Translations under genes and position numbers: made by a program
Part shown: positions 11,425 through 40,762 of the stretch, piece after piece
Layout of the letters: every line of letters starts with the position of its first letter
Position numbering within the stretch: position 1 is the first letter of the stretch
Notes under the pieces: generated by a model
The model's input: only the letters and a program-made list of their open reading frames with translations
Told to the model about the DNA's origin: nothing
Database searches by the model: none
DNA from: a virus
DNA: 40,762 nucleotides
Direction: 5' to 3' (one strand)
IMG/VR virus record: IMGVR_UViG_3300021225_000247
Coordinates: 1 to 40,762 of that record

Positions 11425-11672
11425 GATTTTTCTTTTTTTTGTTTTAAACGATATTCTTTTTGGTAGGCTTTTATCTTTTCAGCATTTTTAAGCCTAAATC
11501 TTTTATGTTTGTCGTATAACAATTCTGGCTTTTCTATTTTGTTTTCATGATACCTTTTTTTCTTGTTTTCTAAATTTTTTAAACGCTTTCTTTCTTTTTG
11601 GTACGGTGACATATTTAAATAATATGCCTTCATATATTCCGATTTACGGGCTTTCTTTTCTTCGTCTGTCAT
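11421..11672 (-). CDS. Lys/Tyr-rich small basic protein; paralogue-like to 19542..19766
   Basis: Repeated K..Y...N.EK / YQKEY motifs are shared with the plus-strand ORF 19542..19766. Confidence 0.55.
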   Translation of the reverse strand: MTDEEKKARKSEYMKAYYLNMSPYQKERKRLKNLENKKKRYHENKIEKPELLYDKHKRFRLKNAEKIKAYQKEYRLKQKKEKS

Positions 11673-12208
11673 GGCTGCTTGTTTAAATAATTCTTGGAGG
11701 CAACTGGATCCTTTCCCTGATTTGAATACTTTGCATCTTGCTTTTTATCATACGAAATATTTGGCATCTCCGAAATATCCTGATAAGTAAGCTGAGCGAT
11801 TTTCATTCCTGGGTAAATCTTGAGCGGCTGAACCGTCAAAAGTTCTAACGTCCAATGCCCTTTAAATCCAACGTCGCCAAATCCTGCGGTAACGTGGACG
11901 GCAAGTCCTAATCTTCCTAAAGAACTTTTGCCCTGGATAATTGGCACGTGTTTCATGGTTTCCGTATATTCCACGGTTGAGGCAAGGTAAACAATGCCAG
12001 GTTGCAAAATCAAACCTTCATCGGGAATAATCATTGGTGCAGATGGGTTTTTCTTTCGCACATCTAAAACTCTTTCTGTGTATAAAATAAGCGTGTTAGA
12101 TAGCGTTAAATCATAGCTATTAGTACCTAAGTTATTGGGATTAAATGGCTCAATAACGATATTACCTTCGGTGATTTCGTCAATGATGGTTTTGTCGGTT
12201 AAAATCAT
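11669..12208 (-). CDS. dcd: dCTP deaminase (dCTP deaminase/dUTPase superfamily)
   Basis: MILTDKTI..., NSYDLTLSN and GKSSLGRLGLAVHVTAGFGDVGFKGHWTLEL match Dcd-family core motifs. Size is typical at 179 aa. Confidence 0.8.
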   Translation of the reverse strand: MILTDKTIIDEITEGNIVIEPFNPNNLGTNSYDLTLSNTLILYTERVLDVRKKNPSAPMIIPDEGLILQPGIVYLASTVEYTETMKHVPIIQGKSSLGRLGLAVHVTAGFGDVGFKGHWTLELLTVQPLKIYPGMKIAQLTYQDISEMPNISYDKKQDAKYSNQGKDPVASKNYLNKQP

Positions 12209-12507
12209 TTCATTTCGTTTTTAAAATTTTCGTTGTAATATTTTGCTGCTTGTTTTTTTAACTCTATTCTAATTTCATCAACGGAAAGCCCTTTGTAATT
12301 TTTCATTATTAAAGGATCATTAAGGCCACTTACATAAGAATCCATTATTTTCTCCTTTTCCATTTCTATATCTTGTTCTTGTTGCCATTTAACACCTTGA
12401 ATAAATGCTTCTCTTTTTATAGTATTGCCGATATCTATACCCATAATGTACGGGTTTGGAGTTGGGTAAAATCTTTCTGCAGCCTCCTCAACTGTTTCTT
12501 TTTTCAT
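12205..12507 (-). CDS. Hypothetical protein (100 aa)
   Basis: ORF with 4-nt overlaps to both neighbours. Confidence 0.55.
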   Translation of the reverse strand: MKKETVEEAAERFYPTPNPYIMGIDIGNTIKREAFIQGVKWQQEQDIEMEKEKIMDSYVSGLNDPLIMKNYKGLSVDEIRIELKKQAAKYYNENFKNEMK

Positions 12508-12872
12508 AAATTGTATTTTTTCCTGTTATCAAATTCCTTTTTAGTAAAATAATATTCAGTCAACATTTGCGCGTTGCATTGCAAGTGAGCCGCATGAAGG
12601 CAACCGTCCTCTGGGTCAATGTCCTCACCGAGGCGAATGGCTTCAATGTGACGCAAGGCGGAGGCAATCACCTCACTCCATGGCATCCCCTTTTCCCAGT
12701 TGCCCGCGGGGTATTTATCCAAACCCTTTGTCCAAACTTTGGCGCACTCGCGATGAGCCAACGGGGGGATAAGGTCGTACCTGATTTTTTCATCATTGAA
12801 CCTTAAACCCCTTGTTTCTGATTTCATTATCTTTTTCAATTCATTTTCCAAGTCATCTGTCATGGCTTCCAT
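12504..12872 (-). CDS. DUF5664-like / dATP-dGTP diphosphohydrolase-like domain protein (nucleotide pyrophosphohydrolase, putative)
   Basis: KIRYDLIPP...KGLDKYPAGNWEKGMPWSEVIASALRHIEAIRLGEDIDPEDGCLHAAHLQCNAQML matches my recollection of the conserved core of this phage family. Start moved to the ATG at 12872 (MEAMTDD), one nt after the upstream stop. Confidence 0.6.
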   Translation of the reverse strand: MEAMTDDLENELKKIMKSETRGLRFNDEKIRYDLIPPLAHRECAKVWTKGLDKYPAGNWEKGMPWSEVIASALRHIEAIRLGEDIDPEDGCLHAAHLQCNAQMLTEYYFTKKEFDNRKKYNL

Positions 12873-12873
12873 T

Positions 12874-13476
12874 TTAATGGGTATGTAAAAAACTTTTATA
12901 AACCTCGCTAATCTCTTTACAAGTCTGCTCAATTAATACAATGGCTTTAAGTAAGTCATCCATTTCAAAGGTATGATTTAATTCATAACTTTCGCCCGTA
13001 AAAGATAAGCCGTTTTTCGTTCTTTTTGTTCCCAGCCAGTTGATTTGGCTTTCGGGGATTGTGTCCCCATTTACAAACATTGCCAGCGCGTAAACTTTCA
13101 TTTGAAGGCTTGTTTTCAATGTCTCTATTGTCCACGGTCTCCCTGAGGTTTTAAAGTCAATAACGCGGTTATTTTCCCTGTCCCATGCGTCAATGTAGCC
13201 AACGACTTGAATGTCATTAATGGAAAGGCTTATCGGTTTTTCAGCCTCAAGTCCTTTGAAGCTTTGAATTTTGTCAATGTAAAAATCGGGGAAGGTTTCC
13301 ATGATTATTCCGTTTTTGATAAACGCCTCCGTGTCCTCGGCAAAGCGTTTGCCAAAATCCATGTAAATGGATGGTTCTTCGGGGAGGTTTAAAAAGTATC
13401 GGTTAAAGTACTTTTGGCGGTCACTGTACCAAAGATTTATTTGGCTGACGGATATATATTTTTTTGGAAGGAGCAT
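12874..13476 (-). CDS. PD-(D/E)XK nuclease (Cas4/RecB-like exonuclease family, putative)
   Basis: GYIDAWD, VIDFKTS (D/E-x-K) and QMKVYAL (QxxxY) occur in the order typical of RecB-family nuclease cores. Confidence 0.6.
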   Translation of the reverse strand: MLLPKKYISVSQINLWYSDRQKYFNRYFLNLPEEPSIYMDFGKRFAEDTEAFIKNGIIMETFPDFYIDKIQSFKGLEAEKPISLSINDIQVVGYIDAWDRENNRVIDFKTSGRPWTIETLKTSLQMKVYALAMFVNGDTIPESQINWLGTKRTKNGLSFTGESYELNHTFEMDDLLKAIVLIEQTCKEISEVYKSFLHTH

Positions 13477-18422: not shown

Positions 18423-18998
18423 TTACTTTCCTCCCAGTTTAACGAACAACAATCCCCAAGGCGTTACCTCCGTTGTTTCCCTAAGTAAGTCAAAACCGTG
18501 GCGTTGAAACAAGGCTACCCATTCGTCTTTTTGTTTTAAGTTAATATGACCCCATTCAATGTCGAAGGCTGGATCGGCTGAGGCGTAAGGCGTACTGGTG
18601 AAATAAAAATATTTGTTGCAGGCTTTGTAAAGAATCGGCATTACTTTATTTATCTCTTCGTCGGTCATGTGTTCAAAAACCTCAGTAGAGTAAATGGCAT
18701 CGTAACTGCCATGCGTTTTAAGTTCACCAAGTAAATATCTTCCAGGCTCAACGCCCTTGCTTATCGCAAATTCCCTTTCATAAGGGTTAATGTCGTAACC
18801 CATGTAATTATACAAGCCAACGCGCTGACAAGCGGAAAGAAAGAAACCAAGTCCAGAGCCGAACTCGAAAACACTTTCGCAGCCCAGACTTTGCAAAACC
18901 TTTGCGCCGTTGGTATGCAAGTCAACCAGGGGTTCATAGTCGCGCGTGGTAAAACCAAGCTCAACGGATTTGTCAAAAAAGAATTTGTTATCAATCAT
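18423..18998 (-). CDS. Class I SAM-dependent methyltransferase (Methyltransf_11/23-like); first gene of the leftward arm
   Basis: VFEFGSGLGFF (motif I), GYDINP (motif II acidic residue) and YDAIYSTEVFEHM (motif III region). Confidence 0.7.
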   Translation of the reverse strand: MIDNKFFFDKSVELGFTTRDYEPLVDLHTNGAKVLQSLGCESVFEFGSGLGFFLSACQRVGLYNYMGYDINPYEREFAISKGVEPGRYLLGELKTHGSYDAIYSTEVFEHMTDEEINKVMPILYKACNKYFYFTSTPYASADPAFDIEWGHINLKQKDEWVALFQRHGFDLLRETTEVTPWGLLFVKLGGK

Positions 18999-19041
18999 TT
19001 GCTTTTGTTTTTGTTACCATGTTCCTGAGGGCAGGAATAAG

Positions 19042-19109
19042 GTTACAAAGTTACAAATATATTCTTAAAAAATATTTTAAATTTAATAACAAATAAATTA
19101 TTATCTTTG
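19042..19109 (+). promoter_or_regulatory. Divergent control region: tandem gttacaaa repeat plus a TAnnTTTG box upstream of ssb
   Basis: gttacaaa occurs at 19042..19049 and 19050..19057. tatctttg at 19102..19109 matches the Bacteroidota -7 consensus TAnnTTTG and lies 17 nt upstream of the ATG at 19127. Confidence 0.45.
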
Positions 19110-19126
19110 CAGAAAGAAAAAATAAA

Positions 19127-19540
19127 ATGATAAAATTAATAGTTGCAGGTCGCATTGGTCAGGATGCTGAAATAAAATCGGTTGGCGATACAACCGTTTG
19201 CTCTTTCTCCGTGGCACACACGGAAAAAACATTTGGAAACAATCCCACGGAAAAAACCGTTTGGGTCACTTGCTCAATGTGGGGTGAGCGTGGTTCCAAA
19301 CTTGCACCGCATTTGGTAAAAGGTACGTATGTTGTCGTAGAAGGAACAGGCGGCGTAAATGCGTACATGAAAAATGGAGAACCGACGGGGATTATTTGTT
19401 GCATGGTGAATAATATCGAGTTTGGAGGCAAGGCAACGCCGGGGGAGAACACGTCTGGCGGTTATGTTAATCCATTGACGAATTCAGTTGCACAGGAATT
19501 AAAAAAAGAATTAAACGCCGACGAACCATTCCCATTTTAA
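19127..19540 (+). CDS. ssb: Single-stranded DNA-binding protein
   Basis: OB-fold-type N-terminus (MIKLIVAGRIGQDAEIKSVGDTTVCSFSVA...VWVTCSMWGERG) and an acidic/aromatic C-terminal tip ADEPFPF. Confidence 0.85.
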   Translation: MIKLIVAGRIGQDAEIKSVGDTTVCSFSVAHTEKTFGNNPTEKTVWVTCSMWGERGSKLAPHLVKGTYVVVEGTGGVNAYMKNGEPTGIICCMVNNIEFGGKATPGENTSGGYVNPLTNSVAQELKKELNADEPFPF

Positions 19541-19541
19541 T

Positions 19542-19766
19542 ATGACACCTGAGTATCAAAAGCAGTATCGGGAAAATATGACCGAGTACCAAAAGCAAAA
19601 GCAAAAGGAATATTTCATGCTTTATCACCAAAACCAACCACCTGAAAAGAAAGCTGAAAAAAGGTTAAGAAATCAAGCATGGTATCAAGCGAATAAGGAG
19701 AGGGTAAATAAATACCAAATGGAACGTTATTACAGATTAAAAGAACAAAAAAATGAATGTGAATAA
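19542..19766 (+). CDS. Tyr/Gln/Lys-rich small protein; paralogue-like to 11421..11672
   Basis: EYQKQYRENMTEYQKQKQKEY ... YQANKERVNKYQMERYY shares the Y..N.E..N/K.YQ periodic motif. Confidence 0.5.
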   Translation: MTPEYQKQYRENMTEYQKQKQKEYFMLYHQNQPPEKKAEKRLRNQAWYQANKERVNKYQMERYYRLKEQKNECE

Positions 19767-19926
19767 ACAAACGCCCGCCGTGTTTTCGGTAAGTTATCGG
19801 GACGAAAAAATAAGAAAGAAGTTGTTGGACTTACAATTTCAACTCTGGAAGGAAACTAATGTTAAACACTCAATGGAAGAGGTATTAAATATTTTATTGG
19901 ATAATTACCAAAAGCACAATAAATGA
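19753..19926 (+). CDS. Small hypothetical protein (57 aa), possibly ribbon-helix-helix-like
   Basis: Translated by hand: MNVNKQTPAVFSVSYRDEKIRKKLLDLQFQLWKETNVKHSMEEVLNILLDNYQKHNK. ATGA overlap with the next gene at 19923..19926. The strand-helix-helix pattern is only a guess. Confidence 0.35.
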   Translation: MNVNKQTPAVFSVSYRDEKIRKKLLDLQFQLWKETNVKHSMEEVLNILLDNYQKHNK

Positions 19927-20927
19927 GGTTAGGCATTGTAACCAATTTAACCAGTCCAACAACCGATTACTACCGTTCGGTAAATCCCTTCATGCGGCTT
20001 CGCTCTCAGATGGTAAATCTTCATATTACGTATTTGAATCCTGAGACGGTAAAGTGGTACGATTTTTACGACGTTGACGTTATCCTCTTCCAACGCCCCA
20101 ACGGCGAGGGAATGTTATCCATGGTTGCGGAGGCAAAGAAGATGGGTAAAAAAATCATTCTTGACCACGACGATCTTTTGCATGAGGTCAACGCCGCAAA
20201 TCCAGCGTCGGCACACTTCGGGAAACCTCAGGTAAAAGAATCGGTTGAAAAGGCTTTTAAGTATGCTGATTTTATCATTGTATCAACACCATTTCTCAAA
20301 GAGTTTTATAAGCAATTCTTTGACGAAAGCAAGATAATGATTATCCCAAACGCCATTGACTTTCAAGTGACGCCCCTTTGCCCCGTGTCACCTGATAAGC
20401 TGGAGGCAAAGATTAAACGCGTGTTGTGGCGTGGAAGCATGACACACATTGAGGACTTGAAAACGGTTGATACATTTTGGCATTATGTGAGCAGCCGCAA
20501 GGACACCGAGGTTGCATTCATTGGTATCCCTGAATGGCTCGGAAAAACATTGTATCCAAATGTTAAAGTCATACCGTGGAACAATTCTTTGTTTCAGTAT
20601 TTCGAGCTGATAAAAAACAGTGCGGCACATTACGCCGTGTTCCCTTTGACAAACGACAATTTTAATCAAAGCAAGTCAAATAACTTTGCGATGGAAATGT
20701 TGGTCACAGGTTGCGTTCCTTATGCACCGAAGGAAATTACGGAGTTCAATGTTCCAGGGGTTCGGTTGTACGAGGGCAACGACGATTTGACAGGGCAATT
20801 TAAACAGGACTTGGAAAATGATAGTAATTATTTCAATCATTTGCAGGCTGGAAGGAAATGGCTTTTGACTGAGCGAAATTTGCTTACCGTCAACAACAAA
20901 AGAAAACAAGTGTTAAAAGGATTATGA
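19923..20927 (+). CDS. GT-B-like glycosyltransferase (putative)
   Basis: Two Rossmann-like halves. The first has MRLGIV.., DVILFQRP.., KKIILDHDDLL, ADFIIVSTPFL and IIPNAID. The second has RVLWRGSMTHIEDL, VAFIG and PLTNDNFNQSKSNNFAMEMLVTG, which resembles the PL....FN..KS..K..E motif of a GT-B family. Confidence 0.5.
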   Translation: MRLGIVTNLTSPTTDYYRSVNPFMRLRSQMVNLHITYLNPETVKWYDFYDVDVILFQRPNGEGMLSMVAEAKKMGKKIILDHDDLLHEVNAANPASAHFGKPQVKESVEKAFKYADFIIVSTPFLKEFYKQFFDESKIMIIPNAIDFQVTPLCPVSPDKLEAKIKRVLWRGSMTHIEDLKTVDTFWHYVSSRKDTEVAFIGIPEWLGKTLYPNVKVIPWNNSLFQYFELIKNSAAHYAVFPLTNDNFNQSKSNNFAMEMLVTGCVPYAPKEITEFNVPGVRLYEGNDDLTGQFKQDLENDSNYFNHLQAGRKWLLTERNLLTVNNKRKQVLKGL

Positions 20928-21499
20928 AGCTAAAGGATATTAAACCAAACCCAAACAACCCACGGGTCTTGAGGGATGAGAAATTTCAAAAGCTAAAGCA
21001 AAGCATCACCGAGTTTCCTAAGATGCTTTCGCTTCGCCCTATGGTCATTGATGAAAACAACGTCGTTTTGGGTGGAAACATGAGGCTTCGCGCCTTGCAA
21101 GAACTTGGATTTACAAACGTGGATGAAGCATGGGTAAAACGAAGCAGCGATTTAACCGAGGAGGAAAAGAAGCGCTTTATCATTGCGGACAATGTAGCCT
21201 TTGGCGAATGGGACTGGGACACACTGGCGAACGATTGGGACGTGGTGGACTTGGAAGCGTGGGGGTTGGAAATACCGCAGTTTAAAGCGGTTGACGTTGA
21301 TTATTCAATACTTGATGACGATGACGTTTCCCAGCAACTTGAGGACATGACCGACGGGGTAAAGAAGGCAATACAAATAGAATTTGAAGCCGAACATTAC
21401 GAAGAGGCTTTCGCATTGGTTAAATATTGGAGAGGCATGAAGGCATACGTTGGAGGTATGATAATGGAATACTTAAAGGCTGAAAAAGATAAATTATGA
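20924..21499 (+). CDS. ParB/Srx N-terminal domain protein with an acidic C-terminal region
   Basis: IKPNPNNPR, KLKQSITEFPKMLSLRPMVIDENNVVLGGNMRLRALQELG matches ParB N-terminal-domain boxes, including the GxxR arginine patch. Confidence 0.75.
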   Translation: MKLKDIKPNPNNPRVLRDEKFQKLKQSITEFPKMLSLRPMVIDENNVVLGGNMRLRALQELGFTNVDEAWVKRSSDLTEEEKKRFIIADNVAFGEWDWDTLANDWDVVDLEAWGLEIPQFKAVDVDYSILDDDDVSQQLEDMTDGVKKAIQIEFEAEHYEEAFALVKYWRGMKAYVGGMIMEYLKAEKDKL

Positions 21500-22194
21500 A
21501 AATGATTCAAGATTCTATTAATGGAATTAAATTTTATCATCGGGAGGGTTTTTCAGACTTAAAAACATTCAAAGAGGTTATTGGTAATAAAGTTTATGAG
21601 AAAAAAGGAATGACAATAAAGCCAAATGAAAGATGGATGGATTGCGGCGGAAACGTTGGTGCATTTACTTTGTTAGCTTGTTCAAAAGGGGCTGAGGTTA
21701 CAGTTTATGAGCCTGACCCTTTCAACTGTCAAATGATTGAAGAAAATTTAAAGCTAAATGGATTTAAGGCTAATATCAAGGAAGCGGCTTTGGTTCATAA
21801 TGATGTGAAAGAATTAATTTTATTTATTGGGAATAATAATAATGTATGGAGAAATTCCATCGTTAAAAAATGGAATAATAAAGGAATTAAAGTTGCGTGT
21901 TTAAACTTTGATGAAGAGGCGAAAAATTTCGATTGTTGCAAGATGGACATTGAAGGGGCTGAAATGTTGATATTAGAAAACACGAAAAAAGTATTTTCTA
22001 AATTGGTTTACGAATGGAGTTTTGATATTGACGATAATTTGCCGAGGTTTTGGAGTATCATTGAAAAACAAAAAAAACAATACTCAGACTTAAAAGACGT
22101 TGGCAATACGGCAAAGTTTAAAACAAGAGATTACAATACATGGCAGAAAAGTTGGTTTCCAGCGTGTACAAATGTTTTTGCATTTAATCAATAA
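21496..22194 (+). CDS. FkbM-family SAM-dependent methyltransferase
   Basis: WMDCGGNVGAFTLLAC (glycine-rich SAM loop), VYEPDP and the hallmark KMDIEGAE motif. Confidence 0.75.
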   Translation: MKMIQDSINGIKFYHREGFSDLKTFKEVIGNKVYEKKGMTIKPNERWMDCGGNVGAFTLLACSKGAEVTVYEPDPFNCQMIEENLKLNGFKANIKEAALVHNDVKELILFIGNNNNVWRNSIVKKWNNKGIKVACLNFDEEAKNFDCCKMDIEGAEMLILENTKKVFSKLVYEWSFDIDDNLPRFWSIIEKQKKQYSDLKDVGNTAKFKTRDYNTWQKSWFPACTNVFAFNQ

Positions 22195-22196
22195 TT

Positions 22197-22976
22197 ATGA
22201 AAAGAGTAGATTTAATCAAGGTTGAACACAATGTAAAGATTGGCGACAAATGCGAATACATTGAACCAAATGTTATAGAGGATTCTATTTTCTATGCAGA
22301 CGGTGAGGCAATAGGTTTTTACCTTACCAAGATGCCTGAGAAAATGTGCAAGTTGGCAGATTTAGCAAACAAGGAGTTTAAAAGTAGCAATGTTCCAAAA
22401 TCTAAAATGAATAGGGGGACGAAAAAACAAGCAATTGCAAAAGGTCAAATATGGATATCTCAATTAAGTACAATTATTGGTAGTTGCGCTCCAAAACCAC
22501 ATATGCGAAGACCATATCCAGCAATGTCAAGTGTTCACGGAGCAAAAACCGCTAAAACATTTATAAAAGCAATGTTGCTTTTGGCAAAGGAAAGCGAAGA
22601 ACTTATAAAAGAAATTTTACCAAAGCAATACGAAAAGCAAGTTGAATTATTTAAAGACGTGCCAGAAAAATGGAGGTTTGCCAATTTGTTTACAAGTTCT
22701 ATTTCAAATTATAATATTTCAGCACCTTTTCATAGGGATACGGGAAACATCGTCGGGGCAGTAAATGTAATAATCTGCAAAAAGTTTAATTCAAAAGGCG
22801 GTGATTTACATATACCCGATTACGGAGCAACTATTGGGCAGCAAGATAATTCAATCCTTGTTTACCCAGCGTGGCGCAACGTTCACGGGGTGACGCCAAT
22901 AATTCCAACCTTAGAAGGTGGTTATCGTAATTCGTTGGTATTTTACCCCTTAAAAGCCTTTTTAGGCTTAGAATAA
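22197..22976 (+). CDS. TET/JBP-family 2-oxoglutarate/Fe(II)-dependent nucleic-acid base dioxygenase
   Basis: HRD at 22731..22739, distal His codon at 22884 and Arg codon at 22926. The C-terminal block NVHGVTPIIPTLEGGYRNSLVFYPLK parallels the human TET2 block LHATTP...RISLVFYQHK. Confidence 0.8.
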   Translation: MKRVDLIKVEHNVKIGDKCEYIEPNVIEDSIFYADGEAIGFYLTKMPEKMCKLADLANKEFKSSNVPKSKMNRGTKKQAIAKGQIWISQLSTIIGSCAPKPHMRRPYPAMSSVHGAKTAKTFIKAMLLLAKESEELIKEILPKQYEKQVELFKDVPEKWRFANLFTSSISNYNISAPFHRDTGNIVGAVNVIICKKFNSKGGDLHIPDYGATIGQQDNSILVYPAWRNVHGVTPIIPTLEGGYRNSLVFYPLKAFLGLE

Positions 22977-22993
22977 CAGCACAGTAACAGCAC

Positions 22994-23311
22994 ATGGCAG
23001 CAAAGGATATAATAAAGCATAAGTTTCCCAAAGGACAATCAGGCAACCCCAACGGTCGCCCCAAGAAACTCCCAGCCCTTGATTTGATAATGGCAAATGT
23101 CATGGGGCAGGAAAAGGACGGTATCACGGCGGCTGAGGCTATTATCATGAAGCTAAGGGAACAGGCGGCAAAGGGTGATATCAAGGCGGCTCAGTTGCTC
23201 CTTGACAGGGCATACGGGAAGGCAAAGCAAAACATTGATATTACGACGCAGGGGGAAAAGGTGACCGTGCCAACGATTATATTTACAAAGGAAAATAAGC
23301 AAGGTGAATAA
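22994..23311 (+). CDS. DUF5681-like protein, putative small terminase subunit
   Basis: The KGQSGNPNGRPKK motif is typical of DUF5681 proteins found next to large terminase genes. Function is inferred from position. Confidence 0.5.
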   Translation: MAAKDIIKHKFPKGQSGNPNGRPKKLPALDLIMANVMGQEKDGITAAEAIIMKLREQAAKGDIKAAQLLLDRAYGKAKQNIDITTQGEKVTVPTIIFTKENKQGE

Positions 23312-23972
23312 ATTTATAAGCGAGGTAACAAATGAGGATTGTATGGAAGGCATGGCACGGTATCCAGATAAATACTTTGATTTGGCAATTGTTGACCCGC
23401 CTTATGGGATAGGGGAGGATGGAAGTAAAAATTATACAAGAGGGAAAAACGCAACCGCAAAAAATTATAAACCATTTTATGGGAATGATTTAAACCCAAT
23501 GAGTATTGAATATTTTAATGAGTTAAAACGCATTTCAAAAAATCAAATTATCTGGGGAGCAAATCATTTTATAGAAAATATATCTCATTCAAATAGTAGT
23601 TGTTGGATTGTATGGGATAAAGACAATACGGGAGATTTTGCTGATTGTGAACTTGCTTACACTTCATTTAAAACGGCAGTAAGAATGTTTACTTTTCGAT
23701 GGAATGGAATGCTTCAACAGGATATGAAAAATAAAGAATATCGAATTCACCCTACTCAAAAACCCATCGCTCTTTACAAATGGCTTTTAAGCAACTACGC
23801 AAAGCAAGGCGATAAAATACTTGATACCCATTTGGGAAGTGGAAGCAGTCGAATTGCAGCTTATGAAATGGGATTTGATTTTACAGCTTTTGAATTGGAT
23901 ACGGAGTATTTCGAGGCTCAAGAAAAACGATACAAGGCGCACATTGCGCAACTTAAACTTGAATTGGTATAA
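23304..23972 (+). CDS. DNA amino-methyltransferase, beta class (N6-adenine most likely, N4-cytosine possible)
   Basis: LAIVDPPYG (motif IV) precedes HPTQKP and ILDTHLGSGSS (motif I), which is the beta-class order. Apparent GTG start at 23304 overlaps the upstream stop. Confidence 0.85.
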   Translation: MNKFISEVTNEDCMEGMARYPDKYFDLAIVDPPYGIGEDGSKNYTRGKNATAKNYKPFYGNDLNPMSIEYFNELKRISKNQIIWGANHFIENISHSNSSCWIVWDKDNTGDFADCELAYTSFKTAVRMFTFRWNGMLQQDMKNKEYRIHPTQKPIALYKWLLSNYAKQGDKILDTHLGSGSSRIAAYEMGFDFTAFELDTEYFEAQEKRYKAHIAQLKLELV

Positions 23973-25201
23973 TGGAGATAAAAGTCAGTGACAAATATCA
24001 AGCCCTCTGGCAACCGCGGACGCGTTACTTCCTCATCACTGGGGGGCGTGGTTCGGCAAAGTCCTTTACCGTGGGGCTTTGGGCTTGTAATATGTTATTG
24101 GCTTATAAAAATTGGAAGGTGCTTTTTACAAGGTACACGTTATCAAGTGCGAATATTTCCGTTATCCCTGAGTTCAGGGAAAAGATTGACTTGCTCGGCG
24201 TGGGTGACGAATTTAATATGACCAACGCGCAAATAAGTCACAAGGTGACAAAGAGTGAAATAATCTTTTCAGGAATCAAAACAAGTTCAGGAAACCAAAC
24301 GGCAAAGTTAAAATCGATACCAGCGTTAAACGTGTTTATCGTTGATGAAGCTGAAGAATTTGTAAGCGAAAAAGACTTTAATACCATTGACGAATCAATT
24401 CGTATTCCTGACACGCCGAACATTGTTATTCTTGTCATGAACCCGCAGGACGTGGAACACTGGATTTGGAAGCGTTGGTTTGAAAAGTCGCATCGCATGG
24501 AGACGATTGACGGACACGCCGTCCCGATAAGTACGCATGAGGATATAACACACATTCATACAACGTACTTGGATAACTTCCATAACTTAAGCGTTGATTA
24601 CATTGCAAAGATTGAGGCAATAAAAACAAAGTCACCTGAGGCATACGCGCACAGGTTTCTTGGCAAATGGCTGGATAAGAAGCAAGGCGTTGTATTTCCA
24701 AATTGGGTTGAAGGTGAATTTGATACAAGCCTACCTTTTGCTTACGGGCTTGACTTCGGCTTCTATCCCGATCCCTTGGCATTGGTTAAAGTTGCGGTTG
24801 ATACCACGGCAAACAAGATTTATGTAAAGGAAATTATTTACGAACAAAGCCTTTCATACGACATGGTTTTAACAAAGATTAGGAATAGCATTGAACTTGA
24901 TGCCATGGTTGTGGCTGATACAAGCGAACCACGGTTAATTGATGCGCTTACCTCGAATGGTATCAATGTGCATAAGACGGAAAAGTATGCTGGCAGCGTG
25001 GTGGATGGGATTAAGAAAATGTCTGATTTTACCATTGTGGTCACAGAGGAATCGTATAATTTAAAATTTGAATTAAGAAATTATATTTGGAACGATAAGA
25101 AATCTTCAACGCCAATGGACGCGGATAACCACGGGATTGACGCGCTTCGCTACGGGTGCATGAGGCTTTTGGAAGGTTCAGACGTATTGGCATTTAATTA
25201 A
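23972..25201 (+). CDS. terL: Terminase large subunit
   Basis: Walker A ITGGRGSAKS and Walker B VFIVDEAEE. C-terminal nuclease motifs GLDFGF.PDP, VVADTSEPR and DADNHGIDALRY. Confidence 0.9.
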   Translation: MEIKVSDKYQALWQPRTRYFLITGGRGSAKSFTVGLWACNMLLAYKNWKVLFTRYTLSSANISVIPEFREKIDLLGVGDEFNMTNAQISHKVTKSEIIFSGIKTSSGNQTAKLKSIPALNVFIVDEAEEFVSEKDFNTIDESIRIPDTPNIVILVMNPQDVEHWIWKRWFEKSHRMETIDGHAVPISTHEDITHIHTTYLDNFHNLSVDYIAKIEAIKTKSPEAYAHRFLGKWLDKKQGVVFPNWVEGEFDTSLPFAYGLDFGFYPDPLALVKVAVDTTANKIYVKEIIYEQSLSYDMVLTKIRNSIELDAMVVADTSEPRLIDALTSNGINVHKTEKYAGSVVDGIKKMSDFTIVVTEESYNLKFELRNYIWNDKKSSTPMDADNHGIDALRYGCMRLLEGSDVLAFN

Positions 25202-25207
25202 AAAGAT

Positions 25208-25450
25208 ATGACACCAAAGGAAAAAGCAAGGGAATTGCATTTAATGATTTACGACACATTGCCCTATCGGCACGTGGTAACAGGTGAATACGACAGTTGG
25301 CTGGAGGCAAAGAAGATAGCCTTGCTTTTGACTGACATAATTATAAGCAATAATCAAAAGATTTGCGGACAACTTGGCTCAGACGTGGATGAAAACACGG
25401 CGTACTGGTGCGAAGTGGAGCTGTATTTAAAAAACATAATAACGAAATGA
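25208..25450 (+). CDS. Hypothetical protein (80 aa)
   Basis: ATG ORF in the late string. Confidence 0.5.
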   Translation: MTPKEKARELHLMIYDTLPYRHVVTGEYDSWLEAKKIALLLTDIIISNNQKICGQLGSDVDENTAYWCEVELYLKNIITK

Positions 25451-40502: not shown

Positions 40503-40762
40503 GTGAAGAAATAAAACCAAAAAAGGAACGTAAGTTTTTAAAGGCATTAGGAAAAATTGGAGAGGTTTTGATTCAAGAACTTTTTTTCAAAGTAGGGAGC
40601 AATTTGATTAGAAAGATTGGAGGTAAAAAAACTTTGCCTTCAATTCTTTTTTTATTCCTTTCCCTCGGCATTTTCGCCCAATTCCCAAACACTGGAAACA
40701 AACAAAGATTAGGTTTCCAGACCACAGGCGACGGCTTAGTTTGGCGCGGTTCATTGTCCGAC
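40499..40762 (+). CDS. N-terminal 88 codons of the wrap-around tail fibre ORF (continues at base 22 after the repeat)
   Basis: ATG at 40499. A basic N-terminus is followed by the hydrophobic LPSILFLFLSLGIFAQ and QTTGDGLVWRG, homologous to the N-terminus of CDS 3460..4701. No stop before the window end. Confidence 0.75.
   Translation, partial: MSEEIKPKKERKFLKALGKIGEVLIQELFFKVGSNLIRKIGGKKTLPSILFLFLSLGIFAQFPNTGNKQRLGFQTTGDGLVWRGSLSD
40742..40762. repeat. 21-bp terminal direct repeat, copy 2 (identical to 1..21)
   Basis: Exact identity with bases 1..21. Confidence 0.9.

Follow-up and report, generated by a model that had tools for sequence, protein, structure and literature searches.

We analysed a gene cluster around a TET/JBP dioxygenase (5mYOX) in the IMG/VR virus record IMGVR_UViG_3300021225_000247. 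The whole record, of 40,762 nucleotides, is called the window. It is a circular contig whose first 20 nt recur at 40741-40762, so it represents a complete genome (~40.7 kb). No tRNA genes were found in the whole genome. The cluster ends in the terminase genes. Sequence comparison for the clade of the window makes it probable (about 0.6) that the cluster hypermodifies thymidine after replication, as a module of the ParB-linked 5mYOX type in which a thymine dioxygenase would act together with tailoring enzymes. The genes of the cluster are the following.

19923-20927, + strand: GT-B, GT4-like glycosyltransferase (GT), 334 aa (phrog_7162, GT-B model)
20924-21499, + strand: ParB-like protein, 191 aa (ParB_N, phrog_620)
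21496-22194, + strand: FkbM methyltransferase, 232 aa (PF05050, TIGR01444)
22197-22976, + strand: TET/JBP Fe(II)/2-oxoglutarate dioxygenase (5mYOX), 259 aa (PF12851)
22994-23311, + strand: DUF5681 protein, 105 aa, probable small terminase subunit (TerS) (PF18932, 8.3e-17, 62 bits)
23304-23972, + strand: beta-class N6-adenine/N4-cytosine methyltransferase with DPPY motif, 222 aa, GTG start (PF01555)
23972-25201, + strand: large terminase subunit (TerL), 409 aa (Terminase_3, 100.8 bits, 9.5e-29; Terminase_3C, 9.2e-15)

The operon and its dioxygenase

The genes are closely coupled. ATGA overlaps join the GT gene to the ParB-like gene, and the latter to the FkbM gene. The FkbM stop codon (TAA, 22192-22194) is followed by a 2-nt spacer and the ATG of the dioxygenase at 22197. 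Between the dioxygenase and TerS there are 17 nt, too few for a terminator. The TerS-like and N6/N4 methyltransferase (MTase) genes overlap by 8 nt, and the stop codon of the MTase shares a TAATG at 23972 with the start codon of TerL. No convincing terminator was found on the + strand between 19200 and 25200. Such stop/start overlaps are ordinary in phage operons and are unremarkable alone. An earlier sequence-only reading of this DNA described six coupled open reading frames (ORFs) on the same strand. All its ORFs, coordinates and junctions match ours. Likewise, all its domain calls hold with Pfam, TIGRFAM, PHROGs and the GT model. Tet_JBP, FkbM, N6_N4_Mtase, DUF5681 and Terminase_3 score above their curated cutoffs.

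The dioxygenase matches PF12851 with 43.7 bits (gathering cutoff, 34.9) and covers profile positions 19-161 of 164. All 120 homologues listed carry this label. H179 and D181 (HRD), H230 (HGVTP) and R244 (RNSLVFY) make up the HxD...H iron triad and the 2-oxoglutarate-binding arginine. These residues are invariant in an alignment with homologues from cyanophages, metagenomes, actinophages and Caulobacter phage Cr30. The profile of the dioxygenase alignment, compared with PDB sequences, matched TET2 (1.2e-5), NgTet1 (7.5e-4), CMD1 (0.014) and CcTet (0.035). No other 2-oxoglutarate oxygenase family was among these matches. The TET2 counterparts are HRD, HATTP and RISLVFY, and so the alignment and the profile match confirm the motifs and the TET2 parallel already pointed out from the letters. 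Searched as single sequences against the PDB, the TET, GT and ParB proteins gave no matches or marginal ones only. By these comparisons, ORF 22197-22976 is a genuine nucleic-acid TET/JBP enzyme, as had been proposed; nothing places it in a non-nucleic-acid dioxygenase family.

The enzyme is 49% identical to that of Prochlorococcus phage MED4-184 and 26-30% identical to the ParB-linked enzymes of actinophages. Its family is abundant in metagenomes: clustering at 90% identity gives 3914 clusters, and IMG/VR contains at least 595 loci. Public labels name the dioxygenase family 'queuine tRNA-ribosyltransferase' (phrog_6059) and its ParB partner 'DNA methylase' (MED4-184; locus L157, 15790-17914). 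Both labels look wrong and should be corrected.

The ParB-like protein matches ParB_N at 2.3e-4, below the Pfam cutoff, and phrog_620 at 5.5e-26. Its N-terminal domain, of the ParB/CTPase type, contains a GGNMRLRA box; an acidic linker rich in Trp follows, and the C-terminal domain is short and helical. No helix-turn-helix (HTH) was found in its 191 amino acids. It aligns over its full length with the gp1 ParB-like proteins of actinophages. This architecture equals that of the published 5mYOX-associated ParBs, which have a nucleotide-binding domain and a C-terminal domain and no DNA-binding domain. Over residues 1-120 the protein shares 67-72% identity with ParB domains of sister phages without TET, and the C-terminal 70 residues are matched only in TET-linked ParBs. 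The N-terminal domain may thus be a general DNA-engaging module, and the C-terminal domain the dioxygenase-specific part. The ParB gene is adjacent in nearly all TET-seeded loci, and in all 63 of the FkbM-seeded loci with room for it, the gene directly upstream of FkbM is ParB. We predict that the protein is an activator or a DNA-loading partner of the dioxygenase.

Slot architecture and the probable substrate

We compared the 80 closest TET-seeded IMG/VR loci (TET 74-84% identical). The order ParB-slot-TET-(TerS)-TerL is conserved, and the module always lies immediately upstream of the terminase genes. Many related loci have a DUF5681 homologue between TET and TerL. The slot contains FkbM in 32/80 loci, a TAGT-like GT-A gene (PF20691, 7.7e-16) in ~38/80 and an ADDT set in 6/80. 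More precisely, these six slots hold an amino-acid:DNA transferase (AADT; PF18724) and a P-loop protein, with or without a GATase, a GNAT or a PLP enzyme. Another slot (1/80) encodes a 301-aa protein without a Pfam match (L063:1790-2695), and 3/80 loci are truncated. TAGT (PF20691) is absent from the window.

The slot is a hypervariable tailoring cassette of ~0.7-2.4 kb between ParB and TET (L003-L082). Examples are L004:3140-3871, L011:4711-7001, L047:5704-7004, L065:3982-6419 and L073:947-2247. The slot of L073 carries a TAGT and a Sulfotransfer_2 protein, and these genes may provide a sulfated sugar.

Although the TET proteins are 74-84% identical, TerL of L003-L156 is mostly 23-35% identical to TerL of the window. 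Hence the module has been transferred between unrelated phages. The bare triad, in the order ParB-FkbM-TET-TerS-TerL, is present in the Prochlorococcus siphophages MED4-184, MED4-117 and P-HS2. No GT, TAGT, AADT or C5-methyltransferase (C5-MT) was detectable in the complete genome of the cultured MED4-184. The triad occurs in at least 244 IMG/VR contigs, with ~900 FkbM protein clusters, and is common in aquatic phages. These neighbourhoods uphold the earlier proposal of a DNA base-modification operon around TET, joined physically and translationally to the terminase genes. From the terminase-adjacent arrangement, it is reasonable to infer that modification takes place around packaging time. 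Such a timing was suggested by Iyer/Aravind and by Burke et al. (PMC8256090).

The dioxygenase substrate is most likely thymine rather than 5-methylcytosine (5mC), with 5-hydroxymethyluracil (5hmU) as the product. This assignment is supported by the missing C5-MT and by the orthologues (81% identical) that adjoin AADT/kinase genes acting on 5hmU. No C5-MT domain (PF00145, DNA_methylase) was matched in a Pfam scan of the 27 larger ORFs; the others, mostly structural, were compared with PHROGs only or with neither. The PCQ...ENV motif was also absent from all six reading frames of the genome, which is complete and circular. A cognate C5-MT gene beside TET, the trait of Burke clades A/B, is absent. 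AADT, P-loop kinase and GATase genes are not in the window and adjoin orthologues of 78-81% identity in L011, L015, L016, L021, L047 and L065. The AADT/kinase chemistry is reportedly specific for 5hmU, as Lee and colleagues are said to have found in 2018.

The similarity of the window TET is nearly equal across slot types: 83.8% for FkbM-linked, 83.4% for TAGT-linked and 81.2% for AADT-linked enzymes. Nearest TET neighbours differ in slot type in about a quarter of the pairs. Most simply, one dioxygenase product, 5hmU, would feed different tailoring enzymes. Since similar TETs are wired to FkbM, TAGT and AADT, FkbM is not needed to create the substrate. The idea that FkbM itself makes the TET substrate was ruled out too, given that near-identical TETs work without any MTase in the slot. 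Likewise, a pairing of the N6/N4 MTase with TET on N-methyl groups was ruled out, as this MTase is not conserved with the module.

The actinophage homologues lie in thymidine-hypermodification operons, of the order ParB-TET-aGPT-Pplase2-5hmU kinase-terminase. Every homologue found in a cultured phage is linked to ParB, and none to a C5-MT. Recent work agrees with thymine as the substrate. The phage clade C1/C2 5mYOXs are post-replicative thymine dioxygenases (O'Toole et al., bioRxiv 2025; PNAS 2026, PMC13229309). One subclass requires a cognate ParB-like protein on double-stranded DNA (dsDNA), as was shown in vivo and in vitro (PMC13229309), and the same study has the AADT/kinase chemistry acting on 5hmU (PMC13229309). 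A C5-MT is present in only ~6% of the mined 5mYOX contigs and missing in ~94% (O'Toole et al.). In the mining table, GTs occur in ~31%, ParB in 25-29% and terminases in ~19% of contigs (O'Toole et al.). The phage thymine dioxygenases 5mYOX97 and 5mYOX176 oxidise iteratively in vitro, and characterised phage thymine dioxygenases also keep some 5mC oxidation (O'Toole et al., PMC13229309). The sequence-only reading had proposed conversion of 5mC to 5-hydroxymethylcytosine (5hmC). That scheme is not supported: the missing C5-MT, the AADT- and TAGT-linked orthologues and the literature of 2025-26 point to thymine to 5hmU.

Tailoring enzymes, proposed pathway and alternatives

The FkbM protein matches PF05050 (44.7 bits, cutoff 22.7; 2.1e-11), TIGR01444 (58.4 bits, cutoff 37.7; 1.1e-15) and phrog_28597 (1.1e-88), a PHROG annotated as of unknown function. 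SAM motif I (DCGGNVG) and a K-x-D-x-E-G-x-E motif are invariant in its alignment. Its best PDB sequence match is 2py6, 'Methyltransferase FkbM' (E 0.019), and its model has a class I MTase fold (pLDDT 79). TET lies directly downstream of FkbM in 70/70 FkbM-seeded loci. On the other hand, only 5/70 of these loci have a GT, whatever its type, within 6 kb of FkbM. Because of this strict linkage, and because MED4-184 has no GT, FkbM appears to work with ParB and TET, and a sugar is not needed.

Enzymes of the FkbM family methylate aliphatic hydroxyls, such as the 31-OH of FK506 and hydroxyls of sugars and polyketides. FkbM also fills the slot of enzymes that transfer groups, such as a sugar or a phosphate, to the 5hmU hydroxyl. 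From these two facts we infer O-methylation of 5hmU. ParB-FkbM-TET would then convert thymine to 5hmU and to an O-methylated derivative, most simply 5-methoxymethyluracil, which would be a new base. We hold this assignment tentatively, with the odds somewhat against it. The possibility of a new modified base, raised from the sequence at the outset, is kept in this form. Our literature search found no report of 5-methoxymethyluracil as a natural DNA constituent, no functional study of FkbM in phage DNA modification and no report on DNA modification of MED4-184, MED4-117 or P-HS2.

Two segments of FkbM are near-invariant, Lys/Arg/Trp-rich and modelled with pLDDT <50. They consist of residues 113-127 (GNNNNVWRNSIVKKWN) and residues ~205-222 (GNTxKFKTRDYxTWQKSWFP). 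Both are candidate elements that might take on order when a macromolecular (DNA) substrate is bound.

The GT scores 21.3 bits for Glyco_transf_4, below the cutoff of 28.5, and matches phrog_7162 at 2.1e-25. Its AF2 model (pLDDT 92.1, pTM 0.89) has a GT-B fold with two Rossmann domains. The top Foldseek matches are the GT4 enzymes BshA, PglA, PimA, GlgM and MshA (TM ~0.7, E 1e-12 to 1e-10). The GT family is small, with 30 clusters versus 3914 for the dioxygenase. Homologues at least 63% identical keep the order GT-ParB-FkbM-TET (L006, L087, L088). Homologues at 35-44% identity belong to the TET-less operons L158-L161 of sister phages (TerL 48-63% identical). There the order is GT, RGP-like (PF03214), GT2 (Glycos_transf_2), CmcI-like Methyltransf_24, ParB, TerS and TerL. 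Neither TET nor FkbM was found in these operons (L158:1358-7029, L159:876-6547, L160:6001-8594, L161:1066-8070). So, the GT is not consistently linked with a hydroxymethylpyrimidine-producing enzyme. It had been counted as a member of the pathway. The GT-B fold and the coupling to ParB are real, but the gene is a rare add-on and its family extends to TET-less phages. The GT possibly glycosylates 5hmU-DNA in the window phage. For this enzyme, a non-DNA acceptor, such as a virion protein, is a live rival.

In L161, which comes from a sister phage, the ParB N-domain (72% identity over 120 aa) forms a fusion protein with an N6_N4 methyltransferase. The cultured-phage relatives of the GT are only 26-28% identical and come from large myoviruses of Escherichia (phAPEC8/ESCO13 type), Klebsiella and Pseudomonas (Phapecoctavirus and others), where they are annotated 'hypothetical' or 'glycosyltransferase'.

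The N6/N4 MTase matches PF01555 (52.8 bits, cutoff 26.7; 6.7e-14) and phrog_67 (4.8e-44), and the DPPY motif is present. None of the 150 related loci, TET- and FkbM-seeded, has it. In the nearest relative (L006, 7771-8600), 348 unrelated nt stand in place of the MTase, between TerS and TerL flanks with an 88% alignment. The closest relatives of the MTase are orphan MTases of Nonlabens, Flavobacterium and Tenacibaculum phages. Because it is absent from the relatives and replaced in L006, we consider it an independent, lineage-specific cassette outside the pathway. Its inclusion as a pathway member is therefore abandoned.

The following pathway is proposed. The dioxygenase, with Fe(II) and 2-oxoglutarate, would hydroxylate the C5-methyl group of thymine to give 5hmU, as the contexts of the orthologues and the biochemistry of the relatives indicate. 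The ParB-like protein would activate the dioxygenase or hold it on dsDNA; the invariant linkage and the ParB176/5mYOX176 pair point in this direction. The slot enzyme would next transfer a group to the new hydroxyl. With FkbM in the slot, this could give an O-methylated oxidised thymine, for example 5-methoxymethyluracil. Weakest is the last step, in which the GT-B enzyme might add a sugar to some 5hmU sites, as a second derivative, or act on another acceptor. The N6/N4 MTase would be a separate, ordinary methylation cassette. A likely role of the modification is to shield phage DNA against host nucleases. It may also have a packaging or regulatory role.

Several points weigh against thymidine hypermodification by this set of genes. 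The enzymes of the window and of MED4-184 stop ~9 residues past the conserved Y250, while those of Wooper, Tonitrus, LilMcDreamy and Kozie run ~30-65 residues longer; the extension missing here amounts to some 40 aa. The extended C-terminus is exclusive to ParB-dependent enzymes and required in them (O'Toole et al., PMC13229309). Without it, ParB dependence of the window enzyme is not assured. By this sequence feature, the window/cyanophage clade is ParB-linked, yet it is not filed in the published ParB-dependent subclass, which has the C-terminal extension. Several clade C1/D enzymes were inactive on T and 5mC in E. coli (Burke et al., PMC8256090). The GT family also occurs without TET in sister phages. 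The Foldseek neighbours of FkbM are generic class I MTases, mostly RNA MTases (TYW2, fibrillarin, RumA/TrmA, RsmC/D), at TM ~0.5, so its acceptor is not readable from the structure. Finally, the substrate may be host-installed 5mC, or the intermediates may be 5-formyluracil and 5-carboxyuracil (5fU/5caU), because characterised phage 5mYOXs oxidise 5mC and iterate.

Three other explanations were weighed with these points in mind. In one, only ParB and TET act on DNA, and FkbM, the GT or both serve virion-protein glycans or host envelope sugars. The glycosylated virions of mycobacteriophages are a precedent. The FkbM family classically methylates hydroxyls of sugars and polyketides, and the Foldseek result for FkbM is not specific. 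GT homologues of 35-44% identity stand near the terminase in TET-less phages, together with RGP-like, GT2 and CmcI-like sugar O-methyltransferase genes. Nevertheless, the orthologous FkbM is never found away from TET (70/70) or ParB (63/63), and there is no GT near it in 65/70 loci or in the whole MED4-184 genome. FkbM also occupies exactly the slot of TAGT or AADT/kinase. We regard this explanation as unlikely on the whole, though less so for the GT.

A pathway through 5mC is improbable. It would start from 5mC made by a host Dcm-type enzyme or by an unrecognised phage cytosine MTase such as FkbM, continue with oxidation to 5hmC and end with glycosylation by the GT. The FkbM gene stands immediately upstream of TET, and the characterised phage thymine dioxygenases keep some activity on 5mC. 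Moreover, the clade A/B phage TETs oxidise 5mC (Burke et al., PMC8256090). Nevertheless, neither a C5-MT domain nor its motif was found in the complete genome, FkbM does not carry a C5-MT signature, and the cultured-phage homologues found are all linked to ParB, none to a C5-MT. Orthologues 78-83% identical have TAGT or AADT/kinase and no MTase in the slot; therefore the substrate pre-exists in DNA. Very improbable is an iterative oxidation to 5fU or 5caU with FkbM methyl-esterifying the product to 5-methoxycarbonyluracil. This would parallel the MTase/dioxygenase pairing of tRNA mcm5U. It would fit the strict FkbM-TET linkage and the in vitro iteration of 5mYOX97 and 5mYOX176. However, the precedents of the FkbM family are O-methylations of alcohols and not of carboxylates, and the enzymes that fill the slot elsewhere (TAGT, kinase) all take 5hmU, an alcohol, as their substrate. 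Thymidine hypermodification through 5hmU is the interpretation that we keep.

Known systems, flanking genes and host

This kind of system, a ParB-linked 5mYOX thymine dioxygenase beside the terminase, is already known. The FkbM slot, the added GT-B enzyme and the missing extension make the window an uncharacterised variant of it. The nearest described group is that of the ParB-dependent thymine dioxygenases (5mYOX clade C1/'clade E', 5mYOX176-ParB176; PMC13229309). They share with the window a TET beside an HTH-less ParB, no C5-MT and a terminase-adjacent position, and the window orthologue loci carry AADT, kinase, GATase and GNAT genes. In contrast, the window enzyme is 26-30% identical to those of actinophages and has no C-terminal extension, and its tailoring gene is FkbM (plus GT-B) instead of AADT/kinase. 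The 5hmU kinase and aGPT-Pplase/AADT route of actinophage operons such as that of Gordonia phage Wooper (gp1-4) has the same ParB-TET upstream steps and the same position beside the terminase. Unlike it, the window has no kinase or AADT, and the group predicted to be added is a methyl, and possibly a sugar, not an amino acid or polyamine.

The C5-MT/TET/GT pathways to glycosyl-5hmC (Burke et al. 2021, PMC8256090; Pyle et al. 2023 preprint) resemble the window in the post-replicative oxidation of a 5-methylpyrimidine followed by transfer to the hydroxymethyl group. Their recruited GTs are likewise related to cell-envelope GT families. They differ in that the window has no C5-MT, most likely uses thymine and contains ParB and FkbM. 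Base J of kinetoplastids (JBP1/2 and JGT) is also made by TET/JBP thymine hydroxylation and 5hmU glycosylation, and TAGT, the family of JGT, fills ~38/80 slots. In the window, by contrast, FkbM occupies the slot and the GT is of the GT-B/GT4 type, the dioxygenase has no J-binding/SNF2 domain, and ParB is present.

The closest cultured carriers are MED4-184, MED4-117 and P-HS2. They have the same gene order, with FkbM 57%, TET 49% and ParB 34% identical, and differ from the window in lacking both the GT and the N6/N4 MTase cassette. The genes of their triad are annotated 'DNA methylase', 'hypothetical protein' and 'queuine tRNA-ribosyltransferase'. The sequence-only reading held that the composition of the operon differs from the described sets. 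This is true of the missing C5-MT. The novelty is smaller than claimed, since ParB-linked thymine dioxygenases have been characterised (PMC13229309) and the co-occurrence of FkbM has been tabulated: 'O-methyltransferase (FkbM), Methyltransf_21' is present in 6.4-7.0% of 5mYOX contigs (O'Toole preprint, Table S7).

If the FkbM step is true, the product would be a new natural DNA base, and the enzyme would have a new activity, the SAM-dependent O-methylation of a hydroxymethylpyrimidine in DNA. O-methylation would join glycosylation, phosphorylation/amination and polyamine addition among the thymidine hypermodifications. The prediction is directly testable: freshwater and marine viromes are rich in the module, and cultured Prochlorococcus phages carry it. 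The arrangement of ParB, a swappable tailoring gene, TET and terminase amounts to a natural swap experiment, with one dioxygenase/ParB pair, different chemistries and unrelated terminases. This layout helps in the discovery of enzymes and bears on the question of why such modules sit at packaging genes. Modifications of this type alter sensitivity to restriction and CRISPR, and they skew base-calling when environmental phage DNA is read by nanopore and PacBio sequencing.

The coupled block starts further upstream than the sequence-only reading had placed it. The flanking features are the following.

19127-19540, + strand: SSB (PF00436, 8.3e-13), first gene of the same-strand block
within 19127-19926, + strand: two small ORFs between SSB and GT, part of the overlapping gene block
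19753-19926, + strand: orf57, whose stop overlaps the GT start by ATGA
18423-18998, - strand: class I SAM MTase (Methyltransf_23; PF13489, 1.7e-10), divergent and upstream of the operon

Homologues of the Methyltransf_23 protein (26-29% identity) are directly upstream of ParB in L047 (4866-5204) and L064 (694-1212). A similar small class I MTase is likewise directly upstream of ParB in L007 (2753-3319). By this weak link, the MTase at 18423-18998 may be an accessory tailoring enzyme.

Two genes of the early region may concern nucleotide pools. One, at 11669-12208 (- strand), encodes a dCTP deaminase (TIGR02274, 121.5 bits, cutoff 92.8). The other, at 12504-12932 (- strand), has the N-terminal domain of a MazZ-type dATP/dGTP diphosphohydrolase (PF18909, 1.8e-29). 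Their sequences suggest manipulation of the nucleotide pool, possibly with a raised dTTP supply. The MazZ-like domain led us to consider a Z-genome (2-aminoadenine) system, which was rejected, as no PurZ-like ORF was found.

A sigma-70 promoter and terminator scan of 18900-25400, made without a Bacteroidota promoter model, gave nothing above chance. The consensus of the Bacteroidota -7 promoter element is TAnnTTTG. The sequence TATCTTTG at 19102-19109, 18 nt upstream of the SSB start, matches it. TerL is 46% identical to a Riemerella phage TerL, and the GC content of the window is ~39%. Together, the promoter match, TerL, the relatives of the N6/N4 MTase and the GC content suggest a host among the Flavobacteriia.

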